Source: Clostridia bacterium (GTDB lineage: Bacteria; Bacillota; Clostridia; Oscillospirales; CAG-272). From it: 64,000 bases of DNA. Location: positions 16,744 through 80,743 of the forward strand of contig JAGALA010000032.1 in assembly GCA_017625935.1 (NCBI GenBank), given 5' to 3'. The number at the start of each line of letters is the position of its first letter. Position 1 is the stretch's first letter. Positions 6,716-26,787 of the stretch are shown in pieces. The notes under the pieces are model-generated. The model did not search any database and had not been told where the DNA came from. It was given only the letters and a program-made list of their open reading frames with translations. A program made the translations under genes and the position numbers.

Positions 6716-6716
6716 A

Positions 6717-7385: not shown

Positions 7386-7408
7386 GGCATGCGATTAAGG
7401 AGAAAATT

Positions 7409-8137: not shown

Positions 8138-9255
8138 CACGCCGCGTATTTTTAATTGTGCTTGACTCCTTTGGCATAGGTGCTGCGCCCGATGCCGCCG
8201 CATTTGGTGACAGCGGTGCTAACACGCTAAGAGGAGTTAACGGCACAGGGATTTTGTCACTTTCCAATATGGCATCATTAGGTCTTGGCTGTATTGACGG
8301 CGTAAGTGATATAGAAAAGACAGAAAATCCGCTTGCAAAGCACGCGCGCTTACAGGAGCGCAGTATGGGCAAGGACACAACCACAGGTCACTGGGAAATG
8401 GGCGGAATTATTTCAAGCGCGCCAATGCCGACGTTTCCAAACGGCTTCCCGCGTGAGCTGCTTGACAAATTTGAGGCGGCGGTTGGACGCGGCACGCTTT
8501 GCAACCTTCCCTACTCCGGCACGGACGTTATCCGCGACTACGGGGAGGAGCATATAAAGACGGGCAAGCTAATTGTTTATACCTCTGCTGACAGCGTTTT
8601 TCAAATTGCCGCACATGAGGAAATTGTTCCCGTTGACGAGCTATATGAAATTTGCCGCACGGCACGCAAGATGCTTGTGGGCGAATATGGCGTTGGGCGC
8701 GTTATTGCGCGTCCGTTTGTAGGACAGGCGCCTGATTTTAAGAGAACCGAAAACCGCCGTGACTTTTCCTTGGTGCCGCCGAGCGATACTATGTTAAATA
8801 AGCTTTCAAGGGAAGGCTTTGACGTAATCGGCGTTGGTAAAATCGGCGATATTTTTGCAATGTCTGGGCTTACCGAGACTTACCCAACTCACAACAACGG
8901 CGAGGGAATGGAAAAGACAAGCGAGCTGATTTCAAGGGATTTTGGCGGTCTTTGCTTTGTTAATTTGGTTGATTTCGATATGAAATACGGTCACCGTCAG
9001 GACGCAAACGGCTACGCCACGGCACTAAACGAGTTTGACAAATGGCTTGGTGAGACGTTGCCGAAGCTACGCGAGGATGATGTTTTGATTATCACCGCAG
9101 ACCACGGCTGTGACCCGACGGACAACAGCACCGACCATACAAGAGAGTACGTTCCGTTTTTGATGTACGGGGCTGAAATTGAGCCCGAAAACCTTGGCAC
9201 TATTCTCGGCTTTGACTATATTGCCAAAACCGTGTATAAGCTGCTTAACGCTTAA
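8134..9255 (+). CDS. deoB: phosphopentomutase
   Basis: 373 aa. N-terminal VLDSFGIG and C-terminal ITADHGCDPT metal-site motifs. ATGA overlap with deoD. Confidence 0.9.
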   Translation: MTRRVFLIVLDSFGIGAAPDAAAFGDSGANTLRGVNGTGILSLSNMASLGLGCIDGVSDIEKTENPLAKHARLQERSMGKDTTTGHWEMGGIISSAPMPTFPNGFPRELLDKFEAAVGRGTLCNLPYSGTDVIRDYGEEHIKTGKLIVYTSADSVFQIAAHEEIVPVDELYEICRTARKMLVGEYGVGRVIARPFVGQAPDFKRTENRRDFSLVPPSDTMLNKLSREGFDVIGVGKIGDIFAMSGLTETYPTHNNGEGMEKTSELISRDFGGLCFVNLVDFDMKYGHRQDANGYATALNEFDKWLGETLPKLREDDVLIITADHGCDPTDNSTDHTREYVPFLMYGAEIEPENLGTILGFDYIAKTVYKLLNA

Positions 9256-9267
9256 ACGAGGTATTTT

Positions 9268-9678
9268 ATGAATACTGAAAAATATTCTGATCTTGTAAAA
9301 AAAGCTATTGAGGCACGAAAGAAAAGCTATTCTCCCTACTCCGCCTTTTCGGTTGGAGCGGCGCTCCTTTGCGCTGACGGCACGATCTACACAGGGGCAA
9401 ACATTGAAAACGCCTCATATACACCGACGGTTTGTGCAGAGCGCGTTGCCTTTTTCAGCGCATTGCACGAGGGACAAAGAGATTTTTGCGCAATTGCAAT
9501 TGTCGGTGGCAAAAGCGGCGAGGAAATTTGCGAGTATTGCCCACCGTGTGGCGTTTGCCGACAGGTGATTAGCGAATTTTGCGGGGATGATTTTGAAATT
9601 ATCCTAAGTGATGGCAAGGAAAACAAGGCTTTAACCTTGAAGGAGCTTTTGCCGTATAGGTTCGACTTATTAAAATAA
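9268..9678 (+). CDS. cdd: cytidine deaminase
   Basis: 136 aa with zinc motifs CAER and CPPCGVCRQ. Confidence 0.9.
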   Translation: MNTEKYSDLVKKAIEARKKSYSPYSAFSVGAALLCADGTIYTGANIENASYTPTVCAERVAFFSALHEGQRDFCAIAIVGGKSGEEICEYCPPCGVCRQVISEFCGDDFEIILSDGKENKALTLKELLPYRFDLLK

Positions 9679-9796
9679 AACCAAGCATAAACATCAGGAG
9701 CAACATCCTGCCATACAAGAAAAAATATAAATGCCCATTAGCTCGGCACGGGCTAATGGGCGAAAAATAAATTTTGGAGAGAGGTATAGTTTTAGA

Positions 9797-10429
9797 ATGA
9801 ACAATCGTCTATTTATTGGTATCGCAGGTGGCTCGGGAAGTGGAAAAACGACCTTGGCTAAGCATTTGTCGCACTATTTTGGCGACCGTCTCTCTCTTTT
9901 GCGCCACGATGACTACTACAAGGCGCAAAGCGACTTGACTATTGAGGAGCGCGCAAGCTTGAATTTTGACCATCCAGATGCGTTTGACACTTCTCTCTTA
10001 ATTGAGCATATGGATGAATTGCGCGCAGGGCACGACATTGCCTGCCCTATTTACAACTACTCTTTGCACGACAGAAGCACGGACGTGCGCTTGGTGAAAT
10101 CCACCGAGGTAATTGTGCTTGAGGGAATTTTGATTTTTGAAAATCCCGAGATTTTGAAGCGCTTAGACATAAAGATTTACGTTGACACGGATGCGGACGT
10201 GCGCATTATAAGAAGAATAAAGCGCGACGTGAGCGAGCGCGGACGTGACCTTGACTCCGTTATTTCTCAATACTTTGCAACGGTAAAGCCGATGCACGAG
10301 GCATTTGTTGAGCCGAGCAAGCGACACGCCGACATTATTGTGCCCGAGGGCGGAATGAACCGCGTGGCACTTGAAATGATAATCCACCGCATTATTTCCC
10401 ATATGGACTCTAACCAAAAGGGTGAGTAA
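9797..10429 (+). CDS. udk: uridine kinase
   Basis: ATG at 9797 with an upstream GGAGAGAGG. P-loop IGIAGGSGSGKTT and the DHPDAFD motif. The 9731 extension lacks homology-type sequence. Confidence 0.85.
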   Translation: MNNRLFIGIAGGSGSGKTTLAKHLSHYFGDRLSLLRHDDYYKAQSDLTIEERASLNFDHPDAFDTSLLIEHMDELRAGHDIACPIYNYSLHDRSTDVRLVKSTEVIVLEGILIFENPEILKRLDIKIYVDTDADVRIIRRIKRDVSERGRDLDSVISQYFATVKPMHEAFVEPSKRHADIIVPEGGMNRVALEMIIHRIISHMDSNQKGE

Positions 10430-13185: not shown

Positions 13186-13220
13186 TAAAAAAGCTTCCCG
13201 AAAAATCGGGAAGCTTTTTA
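13186..13220. terminator. bidirectional terminator between convergent surE and the RNase gene
   Basis: 10-bp stem AAGCTTCCCG (13191-13200) / CGGGAAGCTT (13207-13216), flanked by an A-run and a T-run. Confidence 0.7.
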
Positions 13221-14984
13221 TGCGTATAAGAAAATTTTTCTTGTATCAATATAGTAAATAATGCTGACTGTATCGATTTGTGATGTGATTTTTAAGTCTG
13301 TAAGAGCTGTTGGAACGTATGGCGTTGGGTTATAATCGCTTTTGCTTGAAAGCTTGCCGCCGCCCGTTATGTTGCCGAACATTTCGCCCCATCCGCCGTA
13401 ATAGTTTAGGTATTCCTGGAAGTCGTTATAGTGATTGTAGGTATAGAAAACGTAGCGCTCGTCTGCGTCTATTGTGCCGTTTTGGTCGTCATCCTCGCAG
13501 CAGTAAACGATACGTGCCGCGCCGCGCGTGATTATTATGCCGTCATTATAATCCGTTACATAATATGCAGGGTCGCAGTCGGTGCCTGTTGTGCCAATAT
13601 CCATTTCGTAGTAGCTTAACGTGCCGCCACAGCCCGAGATATTGGGAAGCTCCGGCTCGTATGGGTACTTTGAGGTGCTGCCCGAGAAGGATGTGTGATT
13701 TAAACGCAGGTATATTCCCCACTCGCTTGACGTCGGCTTGGTGTTCTTTGAGGCGGTTTGGTTTGCAGGTGGCTCGCCAAATGCAAAGACGTGTGCCGCA
13801 ACCTCCTCGAGCATTATGTACGCTGCGCCCTTGTATATTTCCATTACAACGTCACCGTATGCATCAACAACGTAGTAAACACAGCCGTCCTCGGAATAAA
13901 GCATTTCGCTATTGCGGACGAATTTGCCGTTTTGCTTTGGCTGGAACGCAGAGATGGTCGGTGCTTGGTCCTGTGCGCCGATTGTGCCCGACATTAAGTT
14001 GTGCAAGGTTCTAAAGTACGCGTCCTCGTAGCTTTGCGCGGGCTTGTAGTTTGCGTAAAATTCATCCACGTCAACGTCGATATAGGGGTCCTCGGTATCG
14101 GTTGGCGCATCGGGATTATAAAAATCGATAATTGTTGCATTGTCAACCTCTAACGTGCCTTTATAATTTCGGAGTGTGCCGCTAATGAGCACGACGTCAC
14201 CCGATTTGAGTGTTGAGCTTGAAACGCTTGAGCCGTCAAGCATTGTGGATTTATAGACGTAGATTGTGCCCGTTTCGTCATAAACGTACATTCTGCCTTC
14301 AGTTAGACTGCTGATTTGCTTTACGGTTGCGACGATGTAGTACGTTTCCTCTGATGAAGCGCTTGTGTACTGCTCTGCTAACTCAAGTGCCTCTGAAACG
14401 GTGATGGTGTCATAGCCTTGGGCAAAATCGTTGTCTGTGATGTCATCATCGGTTGTGCCGTCATTTCCGCCACCTGTGGTGTCGTCGTTTTCGCCGCCCG
14501 TTGTGTTGTCGTCACCTGTGGTATCGTCATTACCGTCGCCTGTAGTGTTGTCGCTATCGTCATTGTCGGTATCGTCGGTGATTGTGTCACTATCGGTGCT
14601 TGGGGTATCCGTGTCGATGCCCGGGACAATTATAATAACGCTGTCTGAATAGTCACCAATTGTTGCCTTGACAACCGAGGTGCCGTATGAAAGCACGGTT
14701 ACAACGCCGCCCTCGACCTTAACGCAGCTATGGCTGCTTGTCCACGTAACCTTGCCCTCTATTTCCTCATTCAAGGTATATGTCAAGGTGATTTTGTCAC
14801 CCTTGTCAAGTGTATAGCGGTTTGCACCGTTTATGTAAAATGCTTTTTCTCCGCTGTCGGTGCTTGACTCGGTGTCGGTATTGCCTGCGCTGTCTGTGCT
14901 GCCAAGCAATGTACAGGACGAAACGCTAAGAAGCATTGATATAATCAAGACCACCGAGACTAAGATTTTAGATAATTTTTTCAC
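13218..14984 (-). CDS. tethered lipoprotein with an OB-fold module and a C-terminal barnase-like (microbial RNase N1/T1/barnase family) domain
   Basis: 588 aa. Lipobox LSVSSC and a T/D/N-rich linker. OB-like segment YYIVATVKQI...MYVYDETGTIYVY...ISGTLRNYKGTLEV. The C-terminus LSYYEMDI...RGAARIVY...YVFYTYNHYNDFQEY aligns with barnase TWREADI...NSDRILY...LIYKTTDHYQTFTKI. Confidence 0.6.
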   Translation of the reverse strand: MKKLSKILVSVVLIISMLLSVSSCTLLGSTDSAGNTDTESSTDSGEKAFYINGANRYTLDKGDKITLTYTLNEEIEGKVTWTSSHSCVKVEGGVVTVLSYGTSVVKATIGDYSDSVIIIVPGIDTDTPSTDSDTITDDTDNDDSDNTTGDGNDDTTGDDNTTGGENDDTTGGGNDGTTDDDITDNDFAQGYDTITVSEALELAEQYTSASSEETYYIVATVKQISSLTEGRMYVYDETGTIYVYKSTMLDGSSVSSSTLKSGDVVLISGTLRNYKGTLEVDNATIIDFYNPDAPTDTEDPYIDVDVDEFYANYKPAQSYEDAYFRTLHNLMSGTIGAQDQAPTISAFQPKQNGKFVRNSEMLYSEDGCVYYVVDAYGDVVMEIYKGAAYIMLEEVAAHVFAFGEPPANQTASKNTKPTSSEWGIYLRLNHTSFSGSTSKYPYEPELPNISGCGGTLSYYEMDIGTTGTDCDPAYYVTDYNDGIIITRGAARIVYCCEDDDQNGTIDADERYVFYTYNHYNDFQEYLNYYGGWGEMFGNITGGGKLSSKSDYNPTPYVPTALTDLKITSQIDTVSIIYYIDTRKIFLYA

Positions 14985-15091
14985 AATATTCCTCTTTTGT
15001 ATGCCTGACAGGAATGGAACAAATCATTCCTGCCAGGCATCTATTTTCACTATATTGTATCATTTTTAGGCGGAATAATCAAGAGGTTTAT

Positions 15092-15122
15092 AAAAAACCA
15101 CGCCCGAGGGCGTGGTTTTTTT
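15092..15122 (-). terminator. Rho-independent terminator after the 1217-aa gene
   Basis: CCACGCCC (15098-15105) / GGGCGTGG (15109-15116) with A/T runs on both sides. Confidence 0.7.
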
Positions 15123-15134
15123 ATTTAGGAAATA

Positions 15135-18100
15135 TTAACCCCAAAATGCGATTGAGTCAATCATTGCTCTAACACCGCCAGAAACAGTTGTGAAATTAAT
15201 TGTTTTGGTGGTTGTTGTGTCGATTTCGATTGCTGTGTACTCACCGTTGTTTGAAGCGGATGTAATTGTGTAATCAACACCGTTTACATTAATCTTTGTG
15301 CTGTTAGCCTTATATTGAGCAACCATGATAACTACCTTATCAACGTCGTCAGCTACAGTAAAGCTAAAACTACCAACAACCTTAGATGTACCAAGCTTAA
15401 TTGCGGAGTTACCCTTTGCGTCAGTTGCAGGACCGTATACCTTGCTCATATTTTCAAGAGTGAGCGTATAGCTGCCTTCTGTATAGGACTTAGATGCACC
15501 GAGGTCATTACCGTCAACGTGCTCGGCTGCTCCGTTTGCACCAAATTCGAACTTTGCAAGCTCCTTTTGGGAAGCTGCTGCATTTTGGTCAAATCCACAA
15601 ACAGTGCATATACCGTCTGCACCGATGTTGTGGCCAAGAGCCTCAGTCATAACTGCTTCGCAAAGTGTGCATTTTTGAGCCGTTGTACATGTTGCTTCAG
15701 AGCCTGCTACACAAGTATGCTTCTTAGTGATTGTAACCTCTGAACCCTTTTGAGCGATTTGGTTTGCACCGCTATATGTGCCGATTTCACCCTTAACTGA
15801 AACCTCGTCACCAACTGAAACTAACGTTGTGATTCTGAAAAGAAGGATTTGGTTGTCTTCTCCGTCAGAGAGCCACACATCCATATTGTTGTACTGTGTG
15901 CTCCAAGAGGACTTGATTTCTGAAATTGTACCTGTAAGAATAACCTTCTTGCCAACAGGTGCTGTAAGTGCGTCTTCAATGCTGATTGAGTAGTAGTAGT
16001 TAGGATCGTCAATGCCACAGCCGTTAGCGCAAACGCCGTCTGTGTATGAGTGACCAAGTGCTTCTACTTCATTGCCGGTATATGAGTGACCGCAGTCTGG
16101 TACTGTACATGTATATGTTGTGAAGCCAGCCGCTGTACATGTAGGAGCTGTAACTACCTCATTGTACACGTGCTCGTGATCTGTAGCGCCGCAAGCTGTG
16201 CAGGTGCCTTCTACATATGAGTGACCGAGAGCGTCAACGTATGTATCAACTACAATGTCACCGCATGAGCATGTGTGTGTTGTGTAGCCTTGCTCTGTGC
16301 AAGTAGGAGCTGTTACTTCGTCTGTATATTCGTGTGTGTGTGCTGTAGCCAAGCTGATTTGAAGCATAGCGTTAAGCGTTGCATCAACCTTTACACCACC
16401 AACGGTTGTGAATTTTCTTGCGAAGTCAGTGCCGAATGTGTAGTTCTCGCCTTCGAGCACCTTGTAGAATACCTTGTTTGTAGCATCAAATGAGAAGCCA
16501 ACCTCAGGAGCAGTATCTACGTATACTGCATTCTTGTGTGTGCCGCTAACAACGAGGTCCATATACTTTGTTGCACCACCTACTGTGAGGGTGATGTAGT
16601 ATGTATCATCTGTAGGACCTGCTAAAACTGTAATCTTAGCTGCAGCTGCTTGAGTTGAAACTGTAGCCATGTAGTACTTAGCGTTACCTGTTGCCATTTC
16701 GCCTGTGATGTAGCAAAGTGCGCCGTCTTGTGTCATAGCGAAGAAGTATTCGCTGCCAACAACCGGGCTAACTGCTTCGAATGGGATTTCGTCAGAGCTG
16801 TCGCCGCCGTTACCGTCAATTGTAGCTGTTGCGCCTTGAGCAACCTGTCTTTCTCCGTCCCAAGTAGCCATTTCACCCTTAACTGTGATTATATCACCGA
16901 TTTCAACCTTAGTTGAAAGTCTGAAGAGGTAAAGCTTGTTGCCGTCTGCGTCTATAATTGTAACGTTCATGTTACCATATTGCTCGTTCCAAGCACCCTC
17001 GATAGAGCAAACTGTACCTGTAACCTTAATCTTTGTTCCGTCTGCTGCTGAAAGTGCCTCAGTAATTGTCATTTCTGTGTAGTTGTCAGGTGTAGATGCG
17101 CCCTCGTTGTCAGGGTGAACCTTATGGTCAACTACCTTTGCGTTCTTAAGCTGAACGTCTGTGTTGTACTTACCAACTGAGGAAAGAACTGTGATGGTGT
17201 CACCCTTGAGTGGCTTAGGATCCATCTTGTCGTATCTTACCTTACCTGTTGCATCGTAAAGACCGTAGATGTAAAGTCTGAATTCGCCTGATTCATCTAC
17301 CAAGTAGAGGTTACCGTAAGTATCGTTTGCTACGCTTTCAACGATACCTGTGATGTAGTATATTTCGTCTGTGTAGTTGTTTGAAGCCATTGGGTCGCCA
17401 ATGTTGTTTGCTTCTTCAATTGTGATTGTTGAAATCGGTTTAACTGCGATTTCGTAATCCTTTGTCTTTGAAACCTCACCGCTTGTAACGGTTGCTGTAA
17501 GCTTTACAGTCTTAGTTTCCTCAGGAATTGTAACTGTAAGTGTTGCGCCGTTCAAGGTTGCAACGTCTGCGCCGTCAACAAGCTCCCAAGAGATTGAAAC
17601 GCCAACAAGGCTTGAGAATGTTGTTGGAAGTGTTGTGTCGCCTGCAACTTGAATCATACCGGGAATGGTTGTGTTTTCAAGTGTGATGTCAACTTGTACG
17701 TCGTCAGGCTTTTCTTGTGCAACAATGTTTGCAAGAGCATCCTTTGAAACAGGCATAAGGTACATATTGCTGTTATAAACTGCGATAATACCTGTTACGT
17801 CTGCTGCGTTGTAGAAGTTGTTGTTAAATGTTGATGTGAGTGTTCTGCCATCATCCTCTGTAATGCAGTTTGATGAGGTTGAAATTCTGAAGTATGTCTT
17901 GTGGTTACCGATTTCGAAGTTGTGGTAACCGTTTGATTCGCTGTATTGAAGAAGTGTAACGCCCTTGATTGTAACGAGCATACCGTTTAAGTTTGTAAGC
18001 GCCTTATCATCAAGTGAAGCTGCGCCGATAACTGCATCGGTAAAGTCAACAGGAGTAACTGTATTGATTGTTTCGTCAATAACGATTACGTCTGCGTTAA

Positions 18101-18788
18101 CAAGCTCGAAAGTGCCGTTATAGTTCTTCTTTTCGCCTCTAACCTCAACGGTCATACCAACCTTGATATTTGTGAGGTCTGTCTTTGAATTGTATACGTA
18201 GTAACCGCCGTTACCGTTAAGGTCTTGGAGATACAAGCTCTCTTCCTTTGTAGAGGTGTTATGTGTCTTTGCCATAATACCTGTTACGATACCTTGAACG
18301 ATAAGTGCTTCACCGTCTTCTGCTGCAACGTATTGGTCGTGTGTGTTAACTGAGAATACAGGAACAGTCAAATTGAAGCTGCCCATCTTCTTCTCGCCCT
18401 TATCATTCTCAATTGAGAACTTAAGTGTGTAGTTGATGGCTGTGTCGCCAAGCTCAGGAATGTTTACAACGTAGCTTGTTCCATCCTCTGATTCTGTGAT
18501 AGTGATAGCGTCATTGTCTGTTGACCATGAGATATTGAAGATTTTGTCGCCGATTGGTGCATTCTTCATAACCTCAAAGCTTGCTGCTGTTACGTTAAGG
18601 GTCTTGTATGTAAGCTTAACATAGTCATAAGCCGCTGCAAGATCCTCATCGGGTTGACTACCTGTTGAGGTGTCTGTGTTGTCGCTTCCGCTGTCCGTGT
18701 TTGTGTTTGTGTCGCCACCGCAGGAGGTGAGAACAAAGAGACCGCAAACGAGAACAAGAACGAGAAGCAAGAGTGAAAGTTTTTTCAT
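15135..18788 (-). CDS. 1217-aa lipoprotein with multiple OB-fold-like modules and Cys-rich repeats (putative nucleic-acid-binding surface protein)
   Basis: Lipobox VLTSCGG and a T/N/D/S tether. At least five modules fit the pattern (I/V)xGxVxxI...YxN(M/L)x(V/L)xDxxG...(L/I)Y(R/G)... such as KVTGTVCSIEGAWNEQYGNMNVTIIDADGNKLYLFRL. There are two PTCTxxG(Y/F)TT(H/Y)TC...ALGHSY repeats. No catalytic motif was recognised. Confidence 0.6.
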   Translation of the reverse strand: MKKLSLLLLVLVLVCGLFVLTSCGGDTNTNTDSGSDNTDTSTGSQPDEDLAAAYDYVKLTYKTLNVTAASFEVMKNAPIGDKIFNISWSTDNDAITITESEDGTSYVVNIPELGDTAINYTLKFSIENDKGEKKMGSFNLTVPVFSVNTHDQYVAAEDGEALIVQGIVTGIMAKTHNTSTKEESLYLQDLNGNGGYYVYNSKTDLTNIKVGMTVEVRGEKKNYNGTFELVNADVIVIDETINTVTPVDFTDAVIGAASLDDKALTNLNGMLVTIKGVTLLQYSESNGYHNFEIGNHKTYFRISTSSNCITEDDGRTLTSTFNNNFYNAADVTGIIAVYNSNMYLMPVSKDALANIVAQEKPDDVQVDITLENTTIPGMIQVAGDTTLPTTFSSLVGVSISWELVDGADVATLNGATLTVTIPEETKTVKLTATVTSGEVSKTKDYEIAVKPISTITIEEANNIGDPMASNNYTDEIYYITGIVESVANDTYGNLYLVDESGEFRLYIYGLYDATGKVRYDKMDPKPLKGDTITVLSSVGKYNTDVQLKNAKVVDHKVHPDNEGASTPDNYTEMTITEALSAADGTKIKVTGTVCSIEGAWNEQYGNMNVTIIDADGNKLYLFRLSTKVEIGDIITVKGEMATWDGERQVAQGATATIDGNGGDSSDEIPFEAVSPVVGSEYFFAMTQDGALCYITGEMATGNAKYYMATVSTQAAAAKITVLAGPTDDTYYITLTVGGATKYMDLVVSGTHKNAVYVDTAPEVGFSFDATNKVFYKVLEGENYTFGTDFARKFTTVGGVKVDATLNAMLQISLATAHTHEYTDEVTAPTCTEQGYTTHTCSCGDIVVDTYVDALGHSYVEGTCTACGATDHEHVYNEVVTAPTCTAAGFTTYTCTVPDCGHSYTGNEVEALGHSYTDGVCANGCGIDDPNYYYSISIEDALTAPVGKKVILTGTISEIKSSWSTQYNNMDVWLSDGEDNQILLFRITTLVSVGDEVSVKGEIGTYSGANQIAQKGSEVTITKKHTCVAGSEATCTTAQKCTLCEAVMTEALGHNIGADGICTVCGFDQNAAASQKELAKFEFGANGAAEHVDGNDLGASKSYTEGSYTLTLENMSKVYGPATDAKGNSAIKLGTSKVVGSFSFTVADDVDKVVIMVAQYKANSTKINVNGVDYTITSASNNGEYTAIEIDTTTTKTINFTTVSGGVRAMIDSIAFWG

Positions 18789-18878
18789 GATGTGCTCCTT
18801 TTTCTTTTTTTGTTAGCTGTTTTATATGAAAATTGTAAATAAAATTTACAAAAATCAACTAATTAATAAGTAATTGAA

Positions 18879-20315
18879 TTATTCATGAATAGTAATATCG
18901 TTAATGTTGAAAACCTTTACCTGATAATCGTTAAAGTAGTCAACTATACCCTTAACGCTGATAACAGTGCCTACAGGGAAATCAGAAGCTACAACGATTG
19001 TCTTATCCTCTCTTACGAGCTTGGATGCGGTACGGATTTGAATTCTAACACCGTTCTCATCCTTACAGGTTATAGTAAGCGCACCGTTTGAATCTGTATC
19101 GGTGGTTGTTGTATAAACGCTTTGTACTGTAAGATTTGAGAGCTTAATTGTGCTGTGAAGTGCGAGTGCACCGTAGTCAAACTCAACGGTTTGAAGCTCC
19201 TCGGTGGTTTCGCCGTTTTCATCCTCAACCTCAACGTATGAATCAATTTTGATTTTTCCGTTTAGAAGTGTGCCCGCATCGCCCTCGCGATATGATGCCT
19301 CGTTACCTGTTTCCAAAACGCTGCATCCGCCTGCCCACTCTTCGTCGAGGATATCGAATTTAAGGTTAGAAACCTGATATGTGCCGCCGTTTTCCCAATA
19401 TTGGAGAGTGCCAACTATTGAAACACGGTTGCCTATTGCAAATCTATCCATAATCGGACAGCCTGCGCCTGCGAAAATCTGCATTCCGAAATACATATCG
19501 TTTTCAGCGTCGTATTCCTCAACGTAGAAGGTATAGCCTGATTTCTTTGCAACTACGGCTTCAAACTTAACGAGTGTGCCCTCGTATTTTTCAGCATTTG
19601 CCTTGAGCTCCTTAAGAGTAAGGGTTTGTGCCGCGCCGTAATAGAAATCGGGGTCCTTTACCTTTTTGTTGAACACAAAAAGCTTCATTGTGGTTGCTTG
19701 ATAAAGCGCCGCTGTTGTATATTCACTATATGTATTTGAGGTAGTACCTGAGCCGAATGCAAGGCCCTGTTGGAGAATTTCAATGTTGAGGTTTCTGTAC
19801 TCACCGTTTTCCTCGGTCTTGTACCAAATCCAAAGAAGGTATCTTCCTCCTGTGGAGTCAAGGTCCCAGCCATCGGTGTCAGACTCAACGATAATTCCGT
19901 TTTTGATTGATTCAGCCTTTTTGAGCTGTGTTTTTGTATAGTTAGATGCCTTTTTACCCCACGGCTCAACAACACCTGTTGACTCGGGAGTATTGATACC
20001 GAGGTATCTTGCCTTGATAAAGCCCTCGGAGATTTCATCCTTATCAATGAAAAAGTGAGTTGTGTCACCGTCGATATATGACTTTACGGTAACGTATGCC
20101 CATTTTTTACCTGAATCGGGATTGAATTTAAGCTGTGAAGCATAGTCAACAAACTCGGGCTCTTCTCCACCGCTTGTATCGGTATTGGTGTTTGTGTTTG
20201 TGTCACCGCTACCGCTATCACTTCCCGTGTCGGGAGTGGGCCCGCAGGCAACAAACGTGCCTACGAGCATCACTATCACGAGAAGCAAGATCAAAATTTT
20301 AGATAACTTGTTCAT
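18879..20315 (-). CDS. lipoprotein thermonuclease (SNase family) with C-terminal OB-like modules
   Basis: 478 aa with lipobox FVACG. YIDGDTTHF...ARYLGINTPES...EPWGKKASNYTK...GGRYLLWIW aligns with staphylococcal nuclease IDGDTVKL...FRLLLVDTPET...EKYGPEASAFTK...GRGLAYIY. Confidence 0.75.
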   Translation of the reverse strand: MNKLSKILILLLVIVMLVGTFVACGPTPDTGSDSGSGDTNTNTNTDTSGGEEPEFVDYASQLKFNPDSGKKWAYVTVKSYIDGDTTHFFIDKDEISEGFIKARYLGINTPESTGVVEPWGKKASNYTKTQLKKAESIKNGIIVESDTDGWDLDSTGGRYLLWIWYKTEENGEYRNLNIEILQQGLAFGSGTTSNTYSEYTTAALYQATTMKLFVFNKKVKDPDFYYGAAQTLTLKELKANAEKYEGTLVKFEAVVAKKSGYTFYVEEYDAENDMYFGMQIFAGAGCPIMDRFAIGNRVSIVGTLQYWENGGTYQVSNLKFDILDEEWAGGCSVLETGNEASYREGDAGTLLNGKIKIDSYVEVEDENGETTEELQTVEFDYGALALHSTIKLSNLTVQSVYTTTTDTDSNGALTITCKDENGVRIQIRTASKLVREDKTIVVASDFPVGTVISVKGIVDYFNDYQVKVFNINDITIHE

Positions 20316-20339
20316 AATCTTTCCTTAATAAGTTAAGAA

Positions 20340-21836
20340 TTAGTTATTATATAGACATTCCTCAATTGCGCCCTTGAATGCGTCAAGAATCATTGCATCA
20401 ACGTCGTCTGTCTTTTGAGTGAAGCAATATTGAATAAGCTTACCAACCTGGTCACGAGCCTTTGTTGAGCCGTTGAATGCAGGTGAAATGAATGCTGCAT
20501 CTGCTTGCTCAAACGCACTGTTGATAACTGTTGCAACGAGGTTACCCTCACCGTCTGCGTTCTTGAGCCAGTTAGCATATGACTTAACTTCCTTAGCGGA
20601 GTTGATAACAGGCATATAGCCTGATGTCTTTGAGAATGCTGCTTGGAATTCAGGTGTTGTGCAAAGGTACTTAACGAAGAGCCAAGAAGCCAAAACCTCT
20701 TGATTGTTATCAAACGTATCGTTGTCGCCTGTTTGGCTGAAGATACAGAGTGAAGGACCCTGTGAAATTACCTTTGGAGCGTCAGGATTAACCTGTGGGA
20801 TTGGAGCTATACCAACCTCGAATGGGAAGTTATCGTCCTCGCCAACAGGGATTTGGTGGCTCGCACCACCTGTTGAACCGATGCACATATAGCATGATGG
20901 CTTTGTTGGGTCTGTGTTTGTAAAGAGCTGTGATGTGTAAGCACCGTAGAGCTCTTGTGTTGTAACGTAGCCGGCTTGGTACCACTCTCTGAATTCCTTA
21001 ACGAACTCACGGTTTGTTTTGTTGTTAAAGAGGAAGTGGTCGTTCTTGTCGTTTGATGTGTACGGTGAGCCGTATTGCTCTGTCATTGTGATGAACCAGT
21101 TTGACTCTGAGTCATAGCCGAGAGGAATGTCTGAGTCGTTTGCGCTGTTGGAGTCAGACTTAAGGATGTCCTTGATTTGAGCGCAAACGGTTTCCATTTC
21201 GTCCCAAGTTGTTGGAACCTTCAAGCCGTTAGCCTCGAAGAAGTCCTTATTGTAGAAGATAACCTCTGTTGACTTTGAAAGTGGCATTGTATACATTGTG
21301 CCTGCTGTATCAAATACAGTACCCTCGTTGTAGTAGGTTTGAATGAAGTCTGCCTTTTGTTCAGCTGTAAGACCGATGATTTCGCCGTCCATACCCTCGA
21401 TTTCGATTGTGCAATCGATAAGGTTGTCAAGCGGAATAACCTTCTTTGTTACGTTGTAAAGAGCAACGTGGTCAGGATAGCAGTATGCAATGTTTGGTTG
21501 GTTGCCTGCTGTTAACTGCTTGTTTGTTTGGTCACGAACCTCATCATAGCCACCGATTTGTGAATGCTCGATAGTGATGTTGGGGTAAATCTCATTGAAC
21601 TTTTCAATGTACAAATCAAGCACGTTACGCAAGTTTTGTCCCATTGTGTGTGAGAATGTGATTGTGATTTCTGCCTCTGTGTCAAATCCCTCTACAGGAA
21701 CCTCCCAACGAACCTTCTCAGCAGTATTTGTGTTACCGCTGTTAGTGTTTGTGTCTGTGGAAGGTGTCGGGCCGCAAGCTACTAATGTAAGAGCGAAAAC
21801 GGCGAGAAGGAGGAGAGCTAAAATCTTCTTTTTCAT
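20340..21836 (-). CDS. ABC transporter substrate-binding lipoprotein (family 1 / CUT1 type)
   Basis: About 498 aa from MKKKILALLLL. Lipobox LVACG and a T/N-rich tether. Overall SBP_bac_1-like composition. An alternative ATG at 21848 has no spaced RBS. Confidence 0.8.
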   Translation of the reverse strand: MKKKILALLLLAVFALTLVACGPTPSTDTNTNSGNTNTAEKVRWEVPVEGFDTEAEITITFSHTMGQNLRNVLDLYIEKFNEIYPNITIEHSQIGGYDEVRDQTNKQLTAGNQPNIAYCYPDHVALYNVTKKVIPLDNLIDCTIEIEGMDGEIIGLTAEQKADFIQTYYNEGTVFDTAGTMYTMPLSKSTEVIFYNKDFFEANGLKVPTTWDEMETVCAQIKDILKSDSNSANDSDIPLGYDSESNWFITMTEQYGSPYTSNDKNDHFLFNNKTNREFVKEFREWYQAGYVTTQELYGAYTSQLFTNTDPTKPSCYMCIGSTGGASHQIPVGEDDNFPFEVGIAPIPQVNPDAPKVISQGPSLCIFSQTGDNDTFDNNQEVLASWLFVKYLCTTPEFQAAFSKTSGYMPVINSAKEVKSYANWLKNADGEGNLVATVINSAFEQADAAFISPAFNGSTKARDQVGKLIQYCFTQKTDDVDAMILDAFKGAIEECLYNN

Positions 21837-21895
21837 TTTGATTTCCATCCTTTAATATAAATTTATTTTTAAGACTTTCGTCATTAAAACTTGTT

Positions 21896-23032
21896 TTATC
21901 CCTTGATACCGGATCTTGAAACGCCCTTCATAATATACTTACGAAGGAAAATGAACACGAGGAACAAAGGAATTGATACCATCGTTACCGCCGCCATCTG
22001 TTGTGGGATGTTGGCAACGCCTGTGTTTGCATCCTGGAATGCAGTACGCAAGCCGTTTGTGATAAGGTGGAATTTCTGTGGGCTAACGAGTCGCGGCCAT
22101 ACGTATGAGTTCCACGCACCCATCATCTTAAGAATTGTAATTGAGATAAGAGTTGGAAGTGCAAGCGGAATCATAACCTTCCAAAGGTATTTCAGGTCAC
22201 TTGTACCGTCAACCTTTGCGGCAAGATATAGCTCGTTTGGTATCTGCATAAAGTTTTGCTTTAACAGATATATGTAGAAAATACTGATAAGGAACGGAAT
22301 GATAAGTACGCCGTAGCCCTGTAAGAAGTTGATAGAATTACCCGTGGTGGTATCAACCCAGCCCCATTTTGAAACCGTAACATAGTTTGTGATGGTGAAA
22401 AGCTCACCGGGGATCATCATTGTGCCAAGAAGAACTGCAAAGAGTGTATCTCTGCCCTTGAATTCAAGACGCGCAAATACGAATGCGCTAATTACGGTAA
22501 CTATAAGCGAAAGTATCGTTGAAACGACACCTACTATAACTGTGTTTTTGAAAAGATTGAAAAGTGAAGCTGCTTTTATCGCCTCGGAGTAGTTACTCCA
22601 CACTATCGTTTGTGGGAACAACGTAGGAATTGGAAGCTCGTATTCCTGCACACTCTTAAGAGATGAAATAATCATCCAATAGAATGGGAAGATGATAACG
22701 AGTGCCATTGAGCCGAGGAAAAGATAAAGCAAAATTTGTGCAATAACCTTGAACACCTTTTGTGCGGAGACAACCTTCTTCAAATCCTTTTCTTGCATTG
22801 TCTTTATCTTTTTGCTTTTGGTTGGTTTTGCAGTTGGTTCTTCAGCGCTTACTTCTTGCACTTCTACTGCTTCAGCAGGCTCTTCAGCCGCTTCTGACGC
22901 TTCAGCTTCAACTGCTTCTTCAGCCGCTTCTTGTACTTCAGCTTCGCTTGCAGCTGCTTCTTGTGCTTCAGCCACTGCTGCTTCTTCAGCTGCTTCAACT
23001 GCTTCTAATTTCTCGTTTTGAGATTCAGACAT
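21896..23032 (-). CDS. ABC transporter permease (MalG-like) with a ~95-aa acidic Ala/Glu-rich N-terminal extension
   Basis: 378 aa. The C-terminal 280 aa carry 6 TM segments and the EAA-type loop (AAKVDGTSDLKYLWKVMIPLALP). The N-terminus reads EAVEAAEEAAVAEAQEAAASEAEVQEAAEE... Confidence 0.85.
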   Translation of the reverse strand: MSESQNEKLEAVEAAEEAAVAEAQEAAASEAEVQEAAEEAVEAEASEAAEEPAEAVEVQEVSAEEPTAKPTKSKKIKTMQEKDLKKVVSAQKVFKVIAQILLYLFLGSMALVIIFPFYWMIISSLKSVQEYELPIPTLFPQTIVWSNYSEAIKAASLFNLFKNTVIVGVVSTILSLIVTVISAFVFARLEFKGRDTLFAVLLGTMMIPGELFTITNYVTVSKWGWVDTTTGNSINFLQGYGVLIIPFLISIFYIYLLKQNFMQIPNELYLAAKVDGTSDLKYLWKVMIPLALPTLISITILKMMGAWNSYVWPRLVSPQKFHLITNGLRTAFQDANTGVANIPQQMAAVTMVSIPLFLVFIFLRKYIMKGVSRSGIKG

Positions 23033-23050
23033 TAAAGAAGCCCTCCTTTA

Positions 23051-24598
23051 TTAATAATGTGTTTTCTTCTTACTTACATAGAGGTTAACGAGTGTAACCG
23101 CAAAGATAAGCAAGAACAAGATAATTGCCGCGGCTGACGCCAAGCCCTGTGAGTTGGTTTCAAGTGCCTCATAAATAAAACCAACCATTGTTTGTAGTCT
23201 TGGTGTACCTGTCGCTGCGCCCGGTGGCTGCATTTTATCACCGAAGATACCGATGATACTTGTATATTCCTTAAATCCACCGATGAAGCCTGTGATAACA
23301 ACGTATGCAATCATTGGTGAAAGAAGCGGAACTGTAATTCTTGTGAACACTCTCCAAGCGGGAGTTGCATCCACCTTTGCCGCCTCGTAGTACTGCTTGT
23401 TTACACTTTGGAGTCCTCCGAGAAGGATAAGAATCTTAAATGGAAGCGCATTCCAAACAATGTAAATAATCATTACCGCGATGTTAGCCCAGTAGCCCGA
23501 GCCCTGGTTAATCCAGTTGACAGGTCCTAAGCCGACAACTCCTATGATATTATTAATAATACCAAGGGATTTACTGAGCATAAGCTCATGCTCGTTAACG
23601 CCGACGATGTTAAACATAGCGGCGAAAACCATGCCTATCGCAATTGAGTTTGTAACGTAAGGCATAAAGAAAATTGTTTGCAAAAATCTTCTAAGCGGCT
23701 TGATTGCGTTAAGACAAACTGCAATCAAAAGTGCCAAGAAGGTTGAGATCGGAACCGTCGCAACACAAAGAATAATAGTATTCTTCATAATTTGAAGGAA
23801 GCCGTCGTATTTAAGAACCTCGGTAAAGTTGCTTATACCGAATTGGAACTTTGTTTCGCCTGCGATATCAAGGCCCATATTGTAGCCCTTGTATTTACCG
23901 TAGCCTAAGATAACCTTTTTACCTGTATCGTCATCTGTGACGATATCACCGTTTTCGTCATACTGATAAATTGGAGCATCCGGGTCCCAATATACAGTAA
24001 ACGCCATCTTAACGGTATTGATGAGTGGCCAGAAGGTAAAGATTGCAAGAAGGATGAGTGTTGGGAGCAAATAGAGCCATGCCTTCCATTTGTCGAACTT
24101 GATTTTGTCGGCAAACTTTCTCTTGAACTTCTTCTTTTCCCACAAAACTCTCTTAACGCCAAGCTTATACGCCTTATTTTCAGGGTTAAACTCTTTTTTG
24201 AACTCTTTCTTTTTTGCCTTGAGCTCCTTGTTTAACGATTTTTTGTTTTCCTTTATAAGCTTTTTGTTATTCTTTTCTCTTGCCTTAATGTCCTTTTGAA
24301 GCTTCTTGATTTTTTCTTCAACCTTTTCAAGCTTTTCCTTTTTCTTGTCATCCTTCGATGCTTTAAGATCGGCTAAAAGCTCTTTCTTTTTCTCTTCGTA
24401 GGACTTAAGCTTTGCTCTTTTGTCGTCAAGCTCGCCATCAAGCTTAGCCGCCTTATCGGCAAGCTCCTGCTTTCTTGCGTTGACCTCGCTCTTAAAAGCC
24501 TGCTTCTTTGCGTCAAGCTTTTCCTTAAGAGCTAATACCTCTTCTTCAGATACCGTTGAATTTACACTTTTTAATGCTACAACTGATTGATCGCTCAT
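23051..24598 (-). CDS. ABC transporter permease (MalF-like) with a ~175-aa Lys/Glu-rich coiled-coil-like N-terminal extension
   Basis: 515 aa with EAA loop EAAKVDATPAWRVFTRITVPLL. The N-terminus reads KEKLDAKKQAFKSEVNARKQELADKAAKL...KKKEKLEKVEEKIKKLQKDIKAREKNNKK... Confidence 0.85.
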   Translation of the reverse strand: MSDQSVVALKSVNSTVSEEEVLALKEKLDAKKQAFKSEVNARKQELADKAAKLDGELDDKRAKLKSYEEKKKELLADLKASKDDKKKEKLEKVEEKIKKLQKDIKAREKNNKKLIKENKKSLNKELKAKKKEFKKEFNPENKAYKLGVKRVLWEKKKFKRKFADKIKFDKWKAWLYLLPTLILLAIFTFWPLINTVKMAFTVYWDPDAPIYQYDENGDIVTDDDTGKKVILGYGKYKGYNMGLDIAGETKFQFGISNFTEVLKYDGFLQIMKNTIILCVATVPISTFLALLIAVCLNAIKPLRRFLQTIFFMPYVTNSIAIGMVFAAMFNIVGVNEHELMLSKSLGIINNIIGVVGLGPVNWINQGSGYWANIAVMIIYIVWNALPFKILILLGGLQSVNKQYYEAAKVDATPAWRVFTRITVPLLSPMIAYVVITGFIGGFKEYTSIIGIFGDKMQPPGAATGTPRLQTMVGFIYEALETNSQGLASAAAIILFLLIFAVTLVNLYVSKKKTHY

Positions 24599-24599
24599 A

Positions 24600-25703
24600 T
24601 CAGTTCACCTCGAATCTAATTCTTTCTTCGGTTACTGAATCAAAGAGAAGCACCTTGTGTGGCTTAAGGTTGAATTTAACTGTTTCTGCTTCTCTGTCAA
24701 TCTTATAGTCAGCATCAACAATAGCACGAACAAATGGATTTGCGGAAGCATCGTTTGTACAAACAACGCTAACGTCGCGGCCCATTACCTCAACGCTGCT
24801 GAGCTTACATTCAAAGGCACCCTCATCTGAAGGAATGAAGCCCTCGGGGCGGATACCAACGAAAACATCACGGTCATCAACACCGGGAACGTCAAGCACC
24901 GCTGCGTCGCCAATAATAAGCTTGCCATCCTCTACCCTACCGTTAAACACGTTGATAGGCGGTGTGCCAAGGAACTTTGCAACGAAAAGATTGGTTGGGT
25001 CATCATAAACGTTTTGAGGTGCACCGATTTGTTGAACAACACCAAGCTTCATAACAACGATAATATCAGAGATGGACATTGCCTCCTCCTGGTCGTGCGT
25101 TACGAAAATAGTTGTGATGCCTGTTTCCTTTTGGATTCTCTTGATTTCCTCACGTGTTTGGAGACGCAAGCGCGCATCAAGGTTTGAAAGCGGCTCGTCA
25201 AGAAGGAGCACCTTTGGCATTTTTACAAGCGCACGTGCGATAGCAACTCTCTGCTGCTGACCGCCTGAGAGCTCACTTGGCTTACGCTCCATAAGCTCGT
25301 CAATTTGAACGAGTCTTGCTGCCTCATACGCCCTTTCGATCATTTCCTTCTTTTTAAGCTTGTCCGGTCCGCGAAGGTTTTGGAGCGGGAACAAGATGTT
25401 CTGCTTTACCGTCATATGAGGATAAAGCGCGTAGTTTTGGAACACAAGTCCAACGCCACGATTTTCGGGAGTGAGCTTTGTAACATCGTCATCACCGAAG
25501 AAAATTTTACCGCCAGTGGGTACTTGAAGTCCACTGATCATGTAAAGGGTTGTGCTCTTACCACAACCGGAAGGACCTAAAAGTCCAACGAGCTTACCAT
25601 CAGGAATGGTAAATGTGAAGTCATTGACAGCAATTGTTTCCTTGCCCTTCTTTTTATCGCGGGCGGGGAAAATCTTTGTCAAATTCTGCAAAACAATTTT
25701 CAT
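24600..25703 (-). CDS. ABC transporter ATP-binding protein (MalK/MsmX/UgpC type)
   Basis: 367 aa. Walker A GPSGCGKST, signature LSGGQQQR, Walker B LLLDEP, and a C-terminal MalK-like regulatory/OB domain. Confidence 0.9.
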   Translation of the reverse strand: MKIVLQNLTKIFPARDKKKGKETIAVNDFTFTIPDGKLVGLLGPSGCGKSTTLYMISGLQVPTGGKIFFGDDDVTKLTPENRGVGLVFQNYALYPHMTVKQNILFPLQNLRGPDKLKKKEMIERAYEAARLVQIDELMERKPSELSGGQQQRVAIARALVKMPKVLLLDEPLSNLDARLRLQTREEIKRIQKETGITTIFVTHDQEEAMSISDIIVVMKLGVVQQIGAPQNVYDDPTNLFVAKFLGTPPINVFNGRVEDGKLIIGDAAVLDVPGVDDRDVFVGIRPEGFIPSDEGAFECKLSSVEVMGRDVSVVCTNDASANPFVRAIVDADYKIDREAETVKFNLKPHKVLLFDSVTEERIRFEVN

Positions 25704-25769: not shown

Positions 25770-26603
25770 TTATCCCCTTTGAGCGTCTACCGTTTCCTTG
25801 TGGAGAGACTGCTTGTAAGCAAGGAGCTCCTCGGGGCTGTCGAACACCATTTGGCTTGCATAGTCCATTGTGACTGTGCCTGACATGATGTCGTGAATTG
25901 GGGTTCTCGCCTTTGTCGCAAACAAAAGAACAACCTCAGCTATTATGATTGCCACAAGAACAATCAATCCAATAAAGCCCATCTGTCCATTTAATATTAA
26001 TAAAATTATGTAGATAGGGACAAGAGCCTCAAGCGTTGCTTTCCCCAAGATTGAACGAAGGAACAGCTGAAGCGGCGTTATTCTCACGCCATCGACGCGC
26101 ATAACTCCGATGCCGAATATTTTTTTGCCAAGCGTTTGCCCGTTCTTCAGAATGAGCGGCAGGATAAACTCCATAATGAAAAATCCCGCAAGCACGCTGA
26201 GCGTGGCAATCAAAAATCCGAGATTGTCAACTATCTCCTTTCGAGCCATATACTCTTTATAAAGCTTTTTCAGCTCAGGGTCAGCCTCGATATTTTTGCC
26301 GTGATTTTCCTTTTCCTTTTCGACCGTAGCAAGATAGGCGGTTTTTTCATCCTCGGTTAGCGCCGCGTACTCTTTTTGGTGTGCCTCACAGCACTCCTCC
26401 ATATTTAAGTGAACGCCATACCGCTTTTCATATTCATGATAGATATCTTGAAGCTGCGAGGTCGCTTTATCCACGTGAGTCGTTGTTCTAAAGGCGAGAG
26501 CAAGGAGGGAAGCGGCACCAACGATAACAATGCCGATAAGGATAAAATCGAAGAGCCACGCAGAAATACGCTTCCACATATTCGCTTTTTGAAAATCGTA
26601 CAT
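25770..26603 (-). CDS. RDD-family membrane protein
   Basis: 277 aa. N-terminal WKRISAWLFDFILIGIV, with TM segments flanking a charged insert. Confidence 0.65.
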   Translation of the reverse strand: MYDFQKANMWKRISAWLFDFILIGIVIVGAASLLALAFRTTTHVDKATSQLQDIYHEYEKRYGVHLNMEECCEAHQKEYAALTEDEKTAYLATVEKEKENHGKNIEADPELKKLYKEYMARKEIVDNLGFLIATLSVLAGFFIMEFILPLILKNGQTLGKKIFGIGVMRVDGVRITPLQLFLRSILGKATLEALVPIYIILLILNGQMGFIGLIVLVAIIIAEVVLLFATKARTPIHDIMSGTVTMDYASQMVFDSPEELLAYKQSLHKETVDAQRG

Positions 26604-26787
26604 TATTTCACCTCCTTATTATACACGCATAATATTCTAACATATTATAACACACGTTTTAGAAAATTTCAAGCGTGCGCACAGAAACAAATATTGGCAA
26701 ATTTAACAATTATTCGACACATTTTTTGGTGACAATAAACAAATTTAGACACAGTATGAGGTTTTTTTAGATTTTAAAATATTCTAC

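Follow-up and report, generated by a model that had tools for sequence, protein, structure and literature searches.

The 64,000-nt stretch of Clostridia bacterium contig JAGALA010000032.1 analyzed here (positions 16,744 to 80,743 of the forward strand, assembly GCA_017625935.1; hereafter the window) carries on its minus strand a set of genes for an ATP-binding cassette (ABC) importer and for lipid-anchored surface proteins, which converges on a plus-strand cluster of nucleotide and nucleoside enzymes. In our assessment this is probably a nucleic-acid utilization locus of an uncultured gut Eubacteriales/Oscillospirales-type bacterium, in which proteins with oligonucleotide/oligosaccharide-binding (OB) folds would capture nucleic acid, an SNase-type nuclease and a putative RNase would cut it, a carbohydrate uptake transporter 1 (CUT1)-type importer would take in the products, and cytoplasmic enzymes would finish their breakdown. 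This assessment is built on gene content, domain identities, the SNase active site, lipoprotein signals, the placement of terminators, synteny, and the nearest solved relatives of the substrate-binding protein (SBP). The concept has already been published as a hypothesis for Mollicutes and Izemoplasmatales. What is new is the occurrence and strict conservation of the module across a large radiation of walled gut Clostridia; its added parts, namely an RDD gene, an OB array that stands alone, and a family of lipid-anchored putative RNases; and the apparent tie between its SBP and a structurally characterized dinucleotide binder.

Open reading frames (ORFs) in the window were taken from a six-frame list, and domains were called with Pfam and NCBIfam. 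A preliminary description of this DNA had placed seven co-directional genes on the minus strand, in the order ATPase, permease, permease, SBP, SNase-type nuclease, 1217-aa protein, and RNase-like protein, and the ORF coordinates and domain calls agree with these genes, their order, and their gaps; an eighth co-directional gene, for an RDD-family membrane protein, had been missed. In transcriptional order, and all on the minus strand, the genes encode the RDD protein (25770..26603; 277 aa; Pfam RDD, E 5.7e-17), an ABC ATPase that is of the MalK/UgpC type and carries a regulatory OB/TOBE domain at its C-terminus (24600..25703; ABC_tran, 1.4e-36, with CysA_C_terminal, OB_MalK, and TOBE_2), a MalF/UgpA-like permease of 515 aa (23051..24598; BPD_transp_1, 6.9e-19), a MalG/UgpE-like permease of 378 aa (21896..23032; BPD_transp_1, 3.9e-12), a CUT1-type SBP lipoprotein (20340..21848; SBP_bac_8, 4.2e-30, and SBP_bac_1), an SNase lipoprotein nuclease (18879..20315), a 1217-aa lipoprotein (15135..18788), and a 588-aa lipoprotein (13218..14984). 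The four lipoproteins carry the lipoboxes LVAC (SBP), FVAC, LTSC, and VSSC at Cys 23-25, each Cys being followed by a T/N/D/S/G-rich linker; both the lipoboxes and the tethers noted earlier can be read in the translations, and the lipobox pattern is retained by the homologues in 78 loci.

The RDD and ATPase genes are 66 nt apart, and the following gaps measure 1, 18, 47 (59 from the second ATG), 24, 90, and 150 nt. RNA folding of the RDD-ATPase, permease-SBP, and SNase-1217-aa spacers showed all three to be unstructured. As had been reported for this stretch, the first strong terminator comes only after the 1217-aa gene and the RNase-like gene has one of its own, which the folding scores bear out: an intrinsic terminator at 15092..15121 (−) closes the 1217-aa gene (13-bp stem plus U-tract, ΔG −21.4, z −6.8), and a second one at 13188..13219 (−), bidirectional between the convergent genes, closes the 588-aa gene (14-bp stem plus U-tract, ΔG −21.5, z −7.1). 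A terminator is found at the same position as 15092..15121 in three related loci (L006, L009, and L012). The top score in the promoter scan belongs to a sigma-70-like site at 26644..26672 (−), TTGAAA, 17 nt, TG-TATAAT, with 11/12 matches and an extended −10, which lies about 40 nt 5′ of the RDD start codon and is probably the operon promoter. Since the RDD gene is on the same strand, is separated by a hairpin-free gap of 66 nt, and has this promoter-like site ahead of it, we place it in the operon. The RDD, ATPase, permease, permease, SBP, SNase, and 1217-aa genes are thus likely to form one operon, reaching to about 26672 upstream. The 588-aa gene has its own promoter-like site in the scan (15054-15082, −), and is predicted to be a separate transcription unit.

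The leader of the 588-aa gene contains a perfect 16-bp hairpin (15001-15040, −; ΔG −33.6 kcal/mol, z −7.1) just 5′ of the ribosome-binding site, which may stabilize the transcript or act on translation in a lineage-specific way. The corresponding spacers of L006, L009, and L012 lack this hairpin, which was rejected as a shared regulatory element because it is not conserved in these relatives. A scan of the whole window with Rfam returned no riboswitch or other RNA family.

The module is found far beyond this contig. In a scan of one genome per GTDB species, at least 587 genomes encode a relative of the SBP, and synteny was counted in a tblastn survey of the best 80 of these species-representative genomes, with the informative loci as denominators. 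The SNase gene lies immediately 3′ of the SBP gene in 74/74 loci (one of these, L062, in which the genes overlap by 3 nt, was counted by hand), and the RDD, ATPase, and both permease genes lie 5′ of the SBP gene on the same strand in 62/62. An OB-array-like protein is encoded in 49 of 58 loci and a protein of the 588-aa type in 13 of 58. The flanks vary from locus to locus while the core is constant. The 80 best relatives, at 55-98% SBP identity, are gut or rumen metagenome-assembled genomes (MAGs) labeled Eubacteriales, Oscillospiraceae, Faecousia, and Lachnospiraceae, together with three that are labeled as Spirochaetes; the closest, at 98% identity, is a 'Eubacteriales bacterium' MAG. SBP homologues number more than 6900, the named ones among the best 120 being uncultured Clostridia MAGs. 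Two further metagenome lineages, with SBP identities of 71% and 58%, have the order RDD-ATPase-permease-permease-SBP-SNase followed by a ~1200-aa protein, a ~450-aa protein, and a convergent SurE-DHH-DHH set. The linkage of ABC and nuclease genes, for which the preliminary description had looked to a survey of related genomes, therefore holds in all 74 informative loci and in the three Spirochaete-labeled MAGs. It is kept down to 55% SBP and 36% SNase identity, and an SNase domain is also called in the homologues of L001-L004. Because the linkage survives to 36% SNase identity and across a phylum boundary, it argues for functional coupling of importer and nuclease.

The Spirochaete-labeled carriers (L052, L068, and L071, labeled Spirochaetales, Sphaerochaeta, and Ornithospirochaeta) have the RDD-ABC-SBP-SNase module at 56-57% SBP identity, which points to a horizontal transfer by which diderm bacteria received the whole unit. 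The module of L052 is separated from surE by a type III restriction-modification system. The slot after the OB-array gene differs in L036, an 'uncultured Agathobacter sp.' MAG, where two genes (15034-16374, −, and 17020-18765, +) replace the 588-aa type, with an Endonuclease_NS_2 DNA/RNA non-specific endonuclease and a protein with an OB fold and a weak EndoU-like match. As other nuclease-type genes occupy this position in L036, the slot appears to be a variable one for accessory nucleases.

The importer belongs to the CUT1 family of type I ABC systems (TC 3.A.1.1), with an SBP, two BPD_transp_1 permeases, and a MalK/UgpC-type ATPase. Its closest NCBIfam models are Ugp, Mal, and GlcV, and the scores are well below the equivalog cutoffs for Ugp (UgpB 58.7 vs 411, UgpE 86.4 vs 297, UgpA 51.9 vs 335, UgpC 343 vs 432); the 515-aa permease scores higher with MalF (68.5 bits) than with UgpA (51.9 bits), both far under cutoff. 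By these scores the transporter is best classified as a CUT1 system and not as Ugp. It resembles UgpBAEC in that Ugp models are the best named ones for its ATPase, one of its permeases, and its SBP, and in that the SBP falls in the phosphate-binding CUT1 branch, whereas its genomic context consists of nucleases and not of a glycerophosphodiesterase. Both permeases have long, low-complexity cytoplasmic N-terminal extensions, of ~165 aa in the 515-aa protein (K/E-rich, coiled-coil-like, with a weak FlgN match) and of ~85 aa in the 378-aa protein (A/E-rich). The homologues have median lengths of 328 and 302 aa, compared with 515 and 378 aa here, although proteins of 620-699 and 506 aa occur in a few other loci. 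The K/E-rich extension is lineage-specific.

When the profile of the SBP family was compared with the PDB, the top of 42 matches was the Thermus thermophilus dinucleotide-binding protein (7C0F-7C1B; 84 bits, E 7e-23), ahead of UgpB (59.7 bits) and of sugar SBPs (≤47 bits). The PDB title describes it as a 'dinucleotide-binding protein of ABC transporter endogenously bound to uridylyl-3'-5'-phospho-guanosine'. In a Foldseek search with an AlphaFold2 (AF2) model of the SBP, ranks 1-25 are all occupied by the same protein (E about 1e-21 to 3e-22). The two are alike in being CUT1-type SBPs, the Thermus protein binding uridylyl-3'-5'-guanosine, and differ in that the SBP of the window is ~100 aa longer and is a lipoprotein. 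Of the eight ligand residues probed in the Thermus protein, read from the mutant names in the PDB titles (Y56, F79, N81, S127, Y224, T240, Y246, and Q274), five align with identical or similar residues that are invariant in the family (Y56=Y101, F79~Y124, N81~D126, S127=S193, and Q274=Q363). A published grouping places the uridylyl-guanosine (U3G) binder, UgpB, and a mycobacterial glycerophosphocholine (GPC) binder in one phosphate-binding CUT1 branch with conserved Tyr and Ser phosphate ligands (PMC12718374). Together, these comparisons support a ligand that bears a phosphodiester or phosphate, while a specific nucleotide is not established at this distance. A weak N-terminal match of the SBP to the mycoplasma model lipo_P68 (37.8 bits vs a cutoff of 200) was rejected as evidence of orthology with the Mollicutes genes; it covers the signal peptide and the low-complexity linker.

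The nuclease encoded next to the SBP has an SNase domain at about residues 70-195, followed by OB-like domains. PF00565 is matched above its cutoff (29.6 bits vs 21), together with a tRNA_anti-codon OB match, in agreement with the earlier assignment of an SNase fold nuclease. In an alignment of 78 homologues with the Staphylococcus aureus nuclease A sequence, the equivalents of D21, R35, T41, E43, and R87 (D84, R103, T109, E111, and R158) are invariant (78/78), and the D40 equivalent is N in 75/78, so that the active site looks intact. A PDB sequence search with the SNase protein gave no matches.

OB-fold matches are present in all three large lipoproteins. The 1217-aa protein has, besides several OB folds, an Ig-like domain, Cys-rich repeats, and two beta-rich regions; it matches aBig_2 and tRNA_anti-codon and, in the ExeM/NucH model, the 135 N-terminal positions only. 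A hidden Markov model of the OB domain of the 588-aa protein matches it at 178-235 (2.9e-5), 453-556 (1.1e-11), and 615-653 (6.5e-3), and about two further segments fit weakly, by sequence pattern only; the 'multi-OB' label of the preliminary description accordingly has statistical backing for three domains and pattern resemblance for the rest. Proteins in the same slot of other species show 66-71 bits of summed OB signal and DUF4131, which we take to be the N-terminal domain of ComEC. Domain scans found no catalytic domain in the 1217-aa protein or in these same-slot proteins, and a PDB sequence search with the 1217-aa protein had no matches. The multi-OB, non-catalytic reading thus appears to hold at the level of the family, and we propose that the protein serves in nucleic-acid capture. 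The N-terminal tRNA_anti-codon/YhcR-type OB folds of the cell-surface nucleases Bacillus subtilis YhcR and Shewanella ExeM/NucH offer a precedent, although there they accompany endonuclease/exonuclease/phosphatase or 5′-nucleotidase domains, which the OB array here does not have, its SNase and putative RNase counterparts being on separate lipoproteins. The beta-rich regions at residues ~665-812 and ~1060-1217 have no family match, and may hide a catalytic or binding domain. Cys/His-rich repeats of the pattern H-x-H-x-Y...TAPTCT..GYTT.TC...ALGHSY..G.C..CG occur at residues ~812-930 and 1020-1065; similar modules, with no Pfam match, stand at the N-termini of the SNase homologues of L001, L007, L011, L013, and L015, and may be small zinc-ribbon-like spacers.

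The 588-aa protein consists of an Ig-like domain (~49-120), an acidic linker, an OB domain (~187-290), and a conserved C-terminal domain (~385-560). In its AF2 model, the Ig and OB domains have pLDDT values above 90, and Foldseek relates them to Big_2, the N-terminal OB domain of LysRS, RPA, and telomere end-binding protein. The C-terminal domain, described earlier as a barnase-like RNase, probably is a divergent RNase of the barnase/RNase Sa type. Three motifs, YYE[MI]DI, TRGAARIVY, and YTYNHYNDF, succeed one another as the Glu, Arg, and His motifs do in RNase T1, RNase Sa, and barnase, a correspondence made by hand, and the residues E460, D462, R487, R491, and H518 are 99-100% conserved in 140 representative clusters. 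The barnase/binase/RNase Sa/RNase T1 group shares with it the invariant motif order E, R...R, H-Y-x-x-F and secretion. The 588-aa protein differs from this group in ~12-15-aa insertions between the motifs, a Gly-rich C-terminal extension, a lipid anchor, and the fusion to Ig and OB domains. PF00545 is the top non-OB match in 20 of 25 family members (E ≤0.1). The family of the C-terminal domain comprises at least 1479 proteins at 90% clustering and 225 clusters at 50%, and is closed and unannotated.

Other results speak against an RNase. PF00545 scores 19.1 bits in the 588-aa protein against a cutoff of 24 and stays below threshold throughout the 25 members; among ten divergent members it is matched in one and reaches threshold in none. 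With PF00545 below its threshold, the RNase assignment is weak. The C-terminal fold failed in AF2 (pLDDT <50 for residues 331-579), and since this domain was not modeled, a barnase fold lay beyond the test made by Foldseek, whose search with the 588-aa model gave no barnase match. By sequence, the 588-aa protein has no match in the PDB, where the family profile matched Ig-like noise only; hhalign against a barnase sequence aligned the N-terminal helix only, at a probability of 1%, and hmmsearch against sequences of barnase, binase, RNase Sa, and RNase T1 gave ≤6 bits. An exhaustive search of representatives with the RNase-like core returned the closed set of 225 clusters and no bridge to canonical RNases. 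Taken with the long, conserved Gly-rich extension that barnase lacks, the missing significant tie to any solved RNase leaves some room for another enzyme, a binding module, or an interbacterial toxin domain. We consider this unlikely, though a serious competitor: it would have to accommodate invariant E, R, R, and H in the right order, the preference for PF00545 among non-OB models, the fusion to a nucleic-acid-type OB fold, and an equivalent slot that elsewhere carries a protein with an OB fold and a weak EndoU-like match. Nor does an immunity gene or barstar adjoin the 588-aa gene; a phmmer search with a barstar sequence found none in the window or in 84 loci.

On the plus strand, converging on the module, lie genes for the salvage and breakdown of nucleosides, namely tdk, deoC, deoD, deoB, cdd, and udk (6125..10429; TK, DeoC, DeoD at 344 bits, DeoB at 505 bits, cytidine deaminase, and Udk at 277 bits), two tandem genes for NrnA-like DHH/DHHA1 phosphoesterases (10480-11418 and 11415-12398; 233 and 226 bits with the NrnA model NF053633, cutoff 350), and surE, for a 5′/3′-nucleotidase (12399-13121; TIGR00087, 153.1 bits vs a cutoff of 135.1). 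Pfam and NCBIfam agree with the head-on tdk-deoC-deoD-deoB-cdd-udk-2xDHH-surE cluster recognized before. The two DHH/DHHA1 proteins are paralogues, 38% identical, with DHH and GGGH motifs. In Mycoplasma bovis, tandem DHH nanoRNases are required for nucleotide supply (PMC7373297). As listed, the deoC ORF begins with TTG at 6633 and shares 83 nt with the end of tdk (6633-6715, +); as its Pfam match starts at residue 39, the true start is probably further downstream.

From this arrangement we infer co-transcription of the genes, nucleic-acid binding by the OB array, RNase activity, a cargo, and a nutritional purpose, which can be joined in a single scheme. The OB domains would hold extracellular DNA and RNA at the membrane surface, where the SNase, and for RNA the putative RNase, would cut them into 3′-phosphorylated mono-, di-, and short oligonucleotides. 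The SBP would bind these phosphodiester- or phosphate-bearing products and hand them to the permeases. Inside, the two NrnA-like DHH/DHHA1 enzymes would cut oligonucleotides to mononucleotides, SurE would strip 3′ or 5′ phosphates, and DeoD, Cdd, Udk, Tdk, DeoB, and DeoC would salvage or ferment the nucleosides. By analogy, this resembles the polysaccharide utilization loci of Gram-positive bacteria in its surface capture, cutting to oligomers, CUT1 import, and internal finishing, with nucleic acid as the polymer in place of polysaccharide, OB folds in place of carbohydrate-binding modules, and NrnA and SurE in place of glycosidases. The capture, cleavage, and import reading of the preliminary description is thus supported, each refuting condition that could be checked in silico having turned out in its favor. 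It is amended as to the cargo: the two NrnA-like enzymes and SurE, whose genes frequently adjoin the module, favor phosphorylated or oligomeric products over nucleosides or deoxyribose.

For the cargo, we lean slightly toward di- or short oligonucleotides and/or 3′-nucleotides. SNase and barnase-type enzymes leave 3′-phosphorylated mono-, di-, and oligonucleotides, and domain scans of the module, and of the equivalent slot in ten other species, turned up no domain of an extracellular nucleotidase or phosphatase. Against this, the SBP and the dinucleotide binder share only ~20% identity; the AF2 model of the SBP is of mediocre quality (pLDDT 65.6, pTM 0.66), and its TM-scores to UgpB and MalE are about the same; Y224, T240, and Y246 of the Thermus protein fall in an unaligned stretch, and no match was obtained when the central part of the SBP was realigned to this protein; and the conserved Tyr and Ser do not specify a nucleotide because these phosphate ligands are common to UgpB. 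Furthermore, an import of nucleosides would suit the adjoining nucleoside-level enzymes (DeoD, Cdd, Udk, Tdk, DeoB, and DeoC) just as well. An importer of nucleosides or of ribose or deoxyribose, working after full extracellular breakdown, would also agree with the usual transport of uncharged sugars by CUT1 systems and with the Izemoplasmatales, whose nuclease-linked ABC systems Wasmund et al. (2021; PMC8289736) read as 'probable nucleoside or nucleobase transporters'. Yet such full breakdown would call for the extracellular nucleotidase or phosphatase that the scans did not find, the nearest SBP relatives bind phosphodiesters or phosphates, and two cytoplasmic NrnA-like enzymes and SurE would have little to do. 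In addition, characterized nucleoside ABC importers use SBPs of the PnrA/BmpA type (PMC12892991), as the preliminary description had stated. On balance, we regard nucleoside or pentose import as rather improbable, and phosphorylated products remain our preferred cargo.

At the level of the whole locus, several observations temper the proposal of nucleic-acid utilization. Every carrier among the best matches listed (120 proteins and 80 species-representative genomes) is a MAG; the synteny counts are not counts of independent events, given the common ancestry of the 80 loci; and the convergent surE-DHH-DHH genes adjoin the module in 33 of 58 loci only. The transporter could in principle be a common Ugp-like system that takes up glycerol-3-phosphate or glycerophosphodiesters, or else a sugar importer, with the nucleases serving unrelated ends such as remodeling of extracellular DNA in biofilms, defense against foreign DNA, or escape from host DNA traps. 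Indeed, each of the four transporter parts has Ugp or Mal as its best NCBIfam name, the alignment with UgpB spans the whole SBP, and mycoplasma surface nucleases also have non-nutritional roles. This explanation is nonetheless very improbable in our view: all Ugp and Mal equivalog scores are far under cutoff, the dinucleotide binder exceeds UgpB by 24 bits, no terminator separates the transporter from the nuclease genes, and the adjacency of the SBP and SNase genes in 74/74 loci, tightly spaced or overlapping, would be difficult to account for if the two were not functionally coupled.

A similar gene arrangement has been described in Mollicutes. In Mycoplasma agalactiae, the P80 SBP-like lipoprotein MAG_5030, the SNase MAG_5040, and MAG_5050-5070 (an ATPase plus two permeases) are co-transcribed; import of nucleic-acid precursors has been proposed as their role, with the transporter receiving the products of the nuclease, and many mycoplasmas keep the arrangement, including M. 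hyopneumoniae (mhp379), M. pneumoniae (MPN133-136), and M. genitalium (MG_186) (PMC3585158; PMC9740415). The mention of an mhp379-type SNase-ABC operon in the preliminary description agrees with these publications. Compared with the published description of gene content, the Mollicutes operons likewise have SBP-like and SNase lipoproteins, one ATPase, and two sugar-type permeases. They differ in that the SBP-SNase pair lies upstream of the transporter genes, whereas here it lies downstream, and in the absence of an RDD gene, a large OB-array protein, and a barnase-like lipoprotein, all three of which are present here. The mycoplasma protein P48 was rejected as a parallel; it is an SBP of the PnrA type and belongs to a different system.

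The 'DNA-degradation loci' described for Izemoplasmatales by Wasmund et al. (2021; PMC8289736), who likewise argued from the neighborhood of the SBP, combine nucleases with ABC transporters, phosphohydrolases, and a nucleic-acid-binding protein of 1049 aa. By description they resemble the present locus in having extracellular nucleases, ABC transporters, and phosphohydrolases beside a protein of ~1000 aa with nucleic-acid-binding domains. They come, however, from a marine, wall-less, Bacilli-related class, they include a phosphate ABC transporter, and their large protein additionally bears nuclease and lamin-tail domains. Their cargo was read by the authors as nucleosides or nucleobases, whereas we prefer phosphorylated products for the locus described here.

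Several other genes of the window lie around the module. A gene for a YgjV-family inner-membrane protein (26846-27400, +) is divergent from the probable operon promoter; it was not found in 84 related loci, is probably unrelated, and was rejected as a member of the module. We take the YgjV family to be related to PnuC-type transporters. Beyond it, 28138-31839 (−) encodes a 1233-aa predicted surface protein with BspA-type leucine-rich repeats (LRRs), an InlB-like repeat, and a CotH kinase domain, and 32094-34766 (−) is an 890-aa ORF with no Pfam match at E ≤1e-4 that adjoins an alpha-L-fucosidase gene (34800-35936). On the other side, a 528-aa BspA-type LRR protein, a predicted surface protein, is encoded at 1559-3145 (+), and an 804-aa DUF4886 protein, predicted to be a large surface protein, at 3186-5600 (+), just upstream of tdk.

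The gut and rumen are rich in extracellular DNA and RNA, which come from the diet, shed host cells, and lysed microbes. To our knowledge, how anaerobes feed on them is poorly understood, the passage of phosphorylated nucleic-acid fragments across bacterial membranes is essentially unassigned, and the nuclease-linked transporter of mycoplasmas, a hypothesis since 2007, has no known ligand. The locus described here offers an SBP family, a structural lead from Thermus, a candidate function for an RDD protein, and at least 1479 putative surface RNases. Given the link of the SBP to a dinucleotide binder, the question of the cargo becomes a direct experiment, and the breadth of the module, its invariant core, and this link together make it testable what nuclease-linked ABC systems carry and whether oligonucleotides are nutrients for bacteria. 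We tentatively suggest, as a possibility that falls somewhat short of even, that the CUT1 transporter brings in intact di- or oligonucleotides or 3′-nucleotides and would be the first defined bacterial importer of oligonucleotides for nutrition, with an RDD accessory subunit, an OB catcher, and a new RNase family, in hundreds of species of gut and rumen Clostridia and in some Spirochaetes. Import of oligonucleotides would explain the long-unassigned cargo of the nuclease-linked transporters of mycoplasmas. If the proposed function is right, the module would serve as a genomic marker for nucleic-acid foraging in metagenomes, and would represent the nucleic-acid counterpart of polysaccharide utilization loci.

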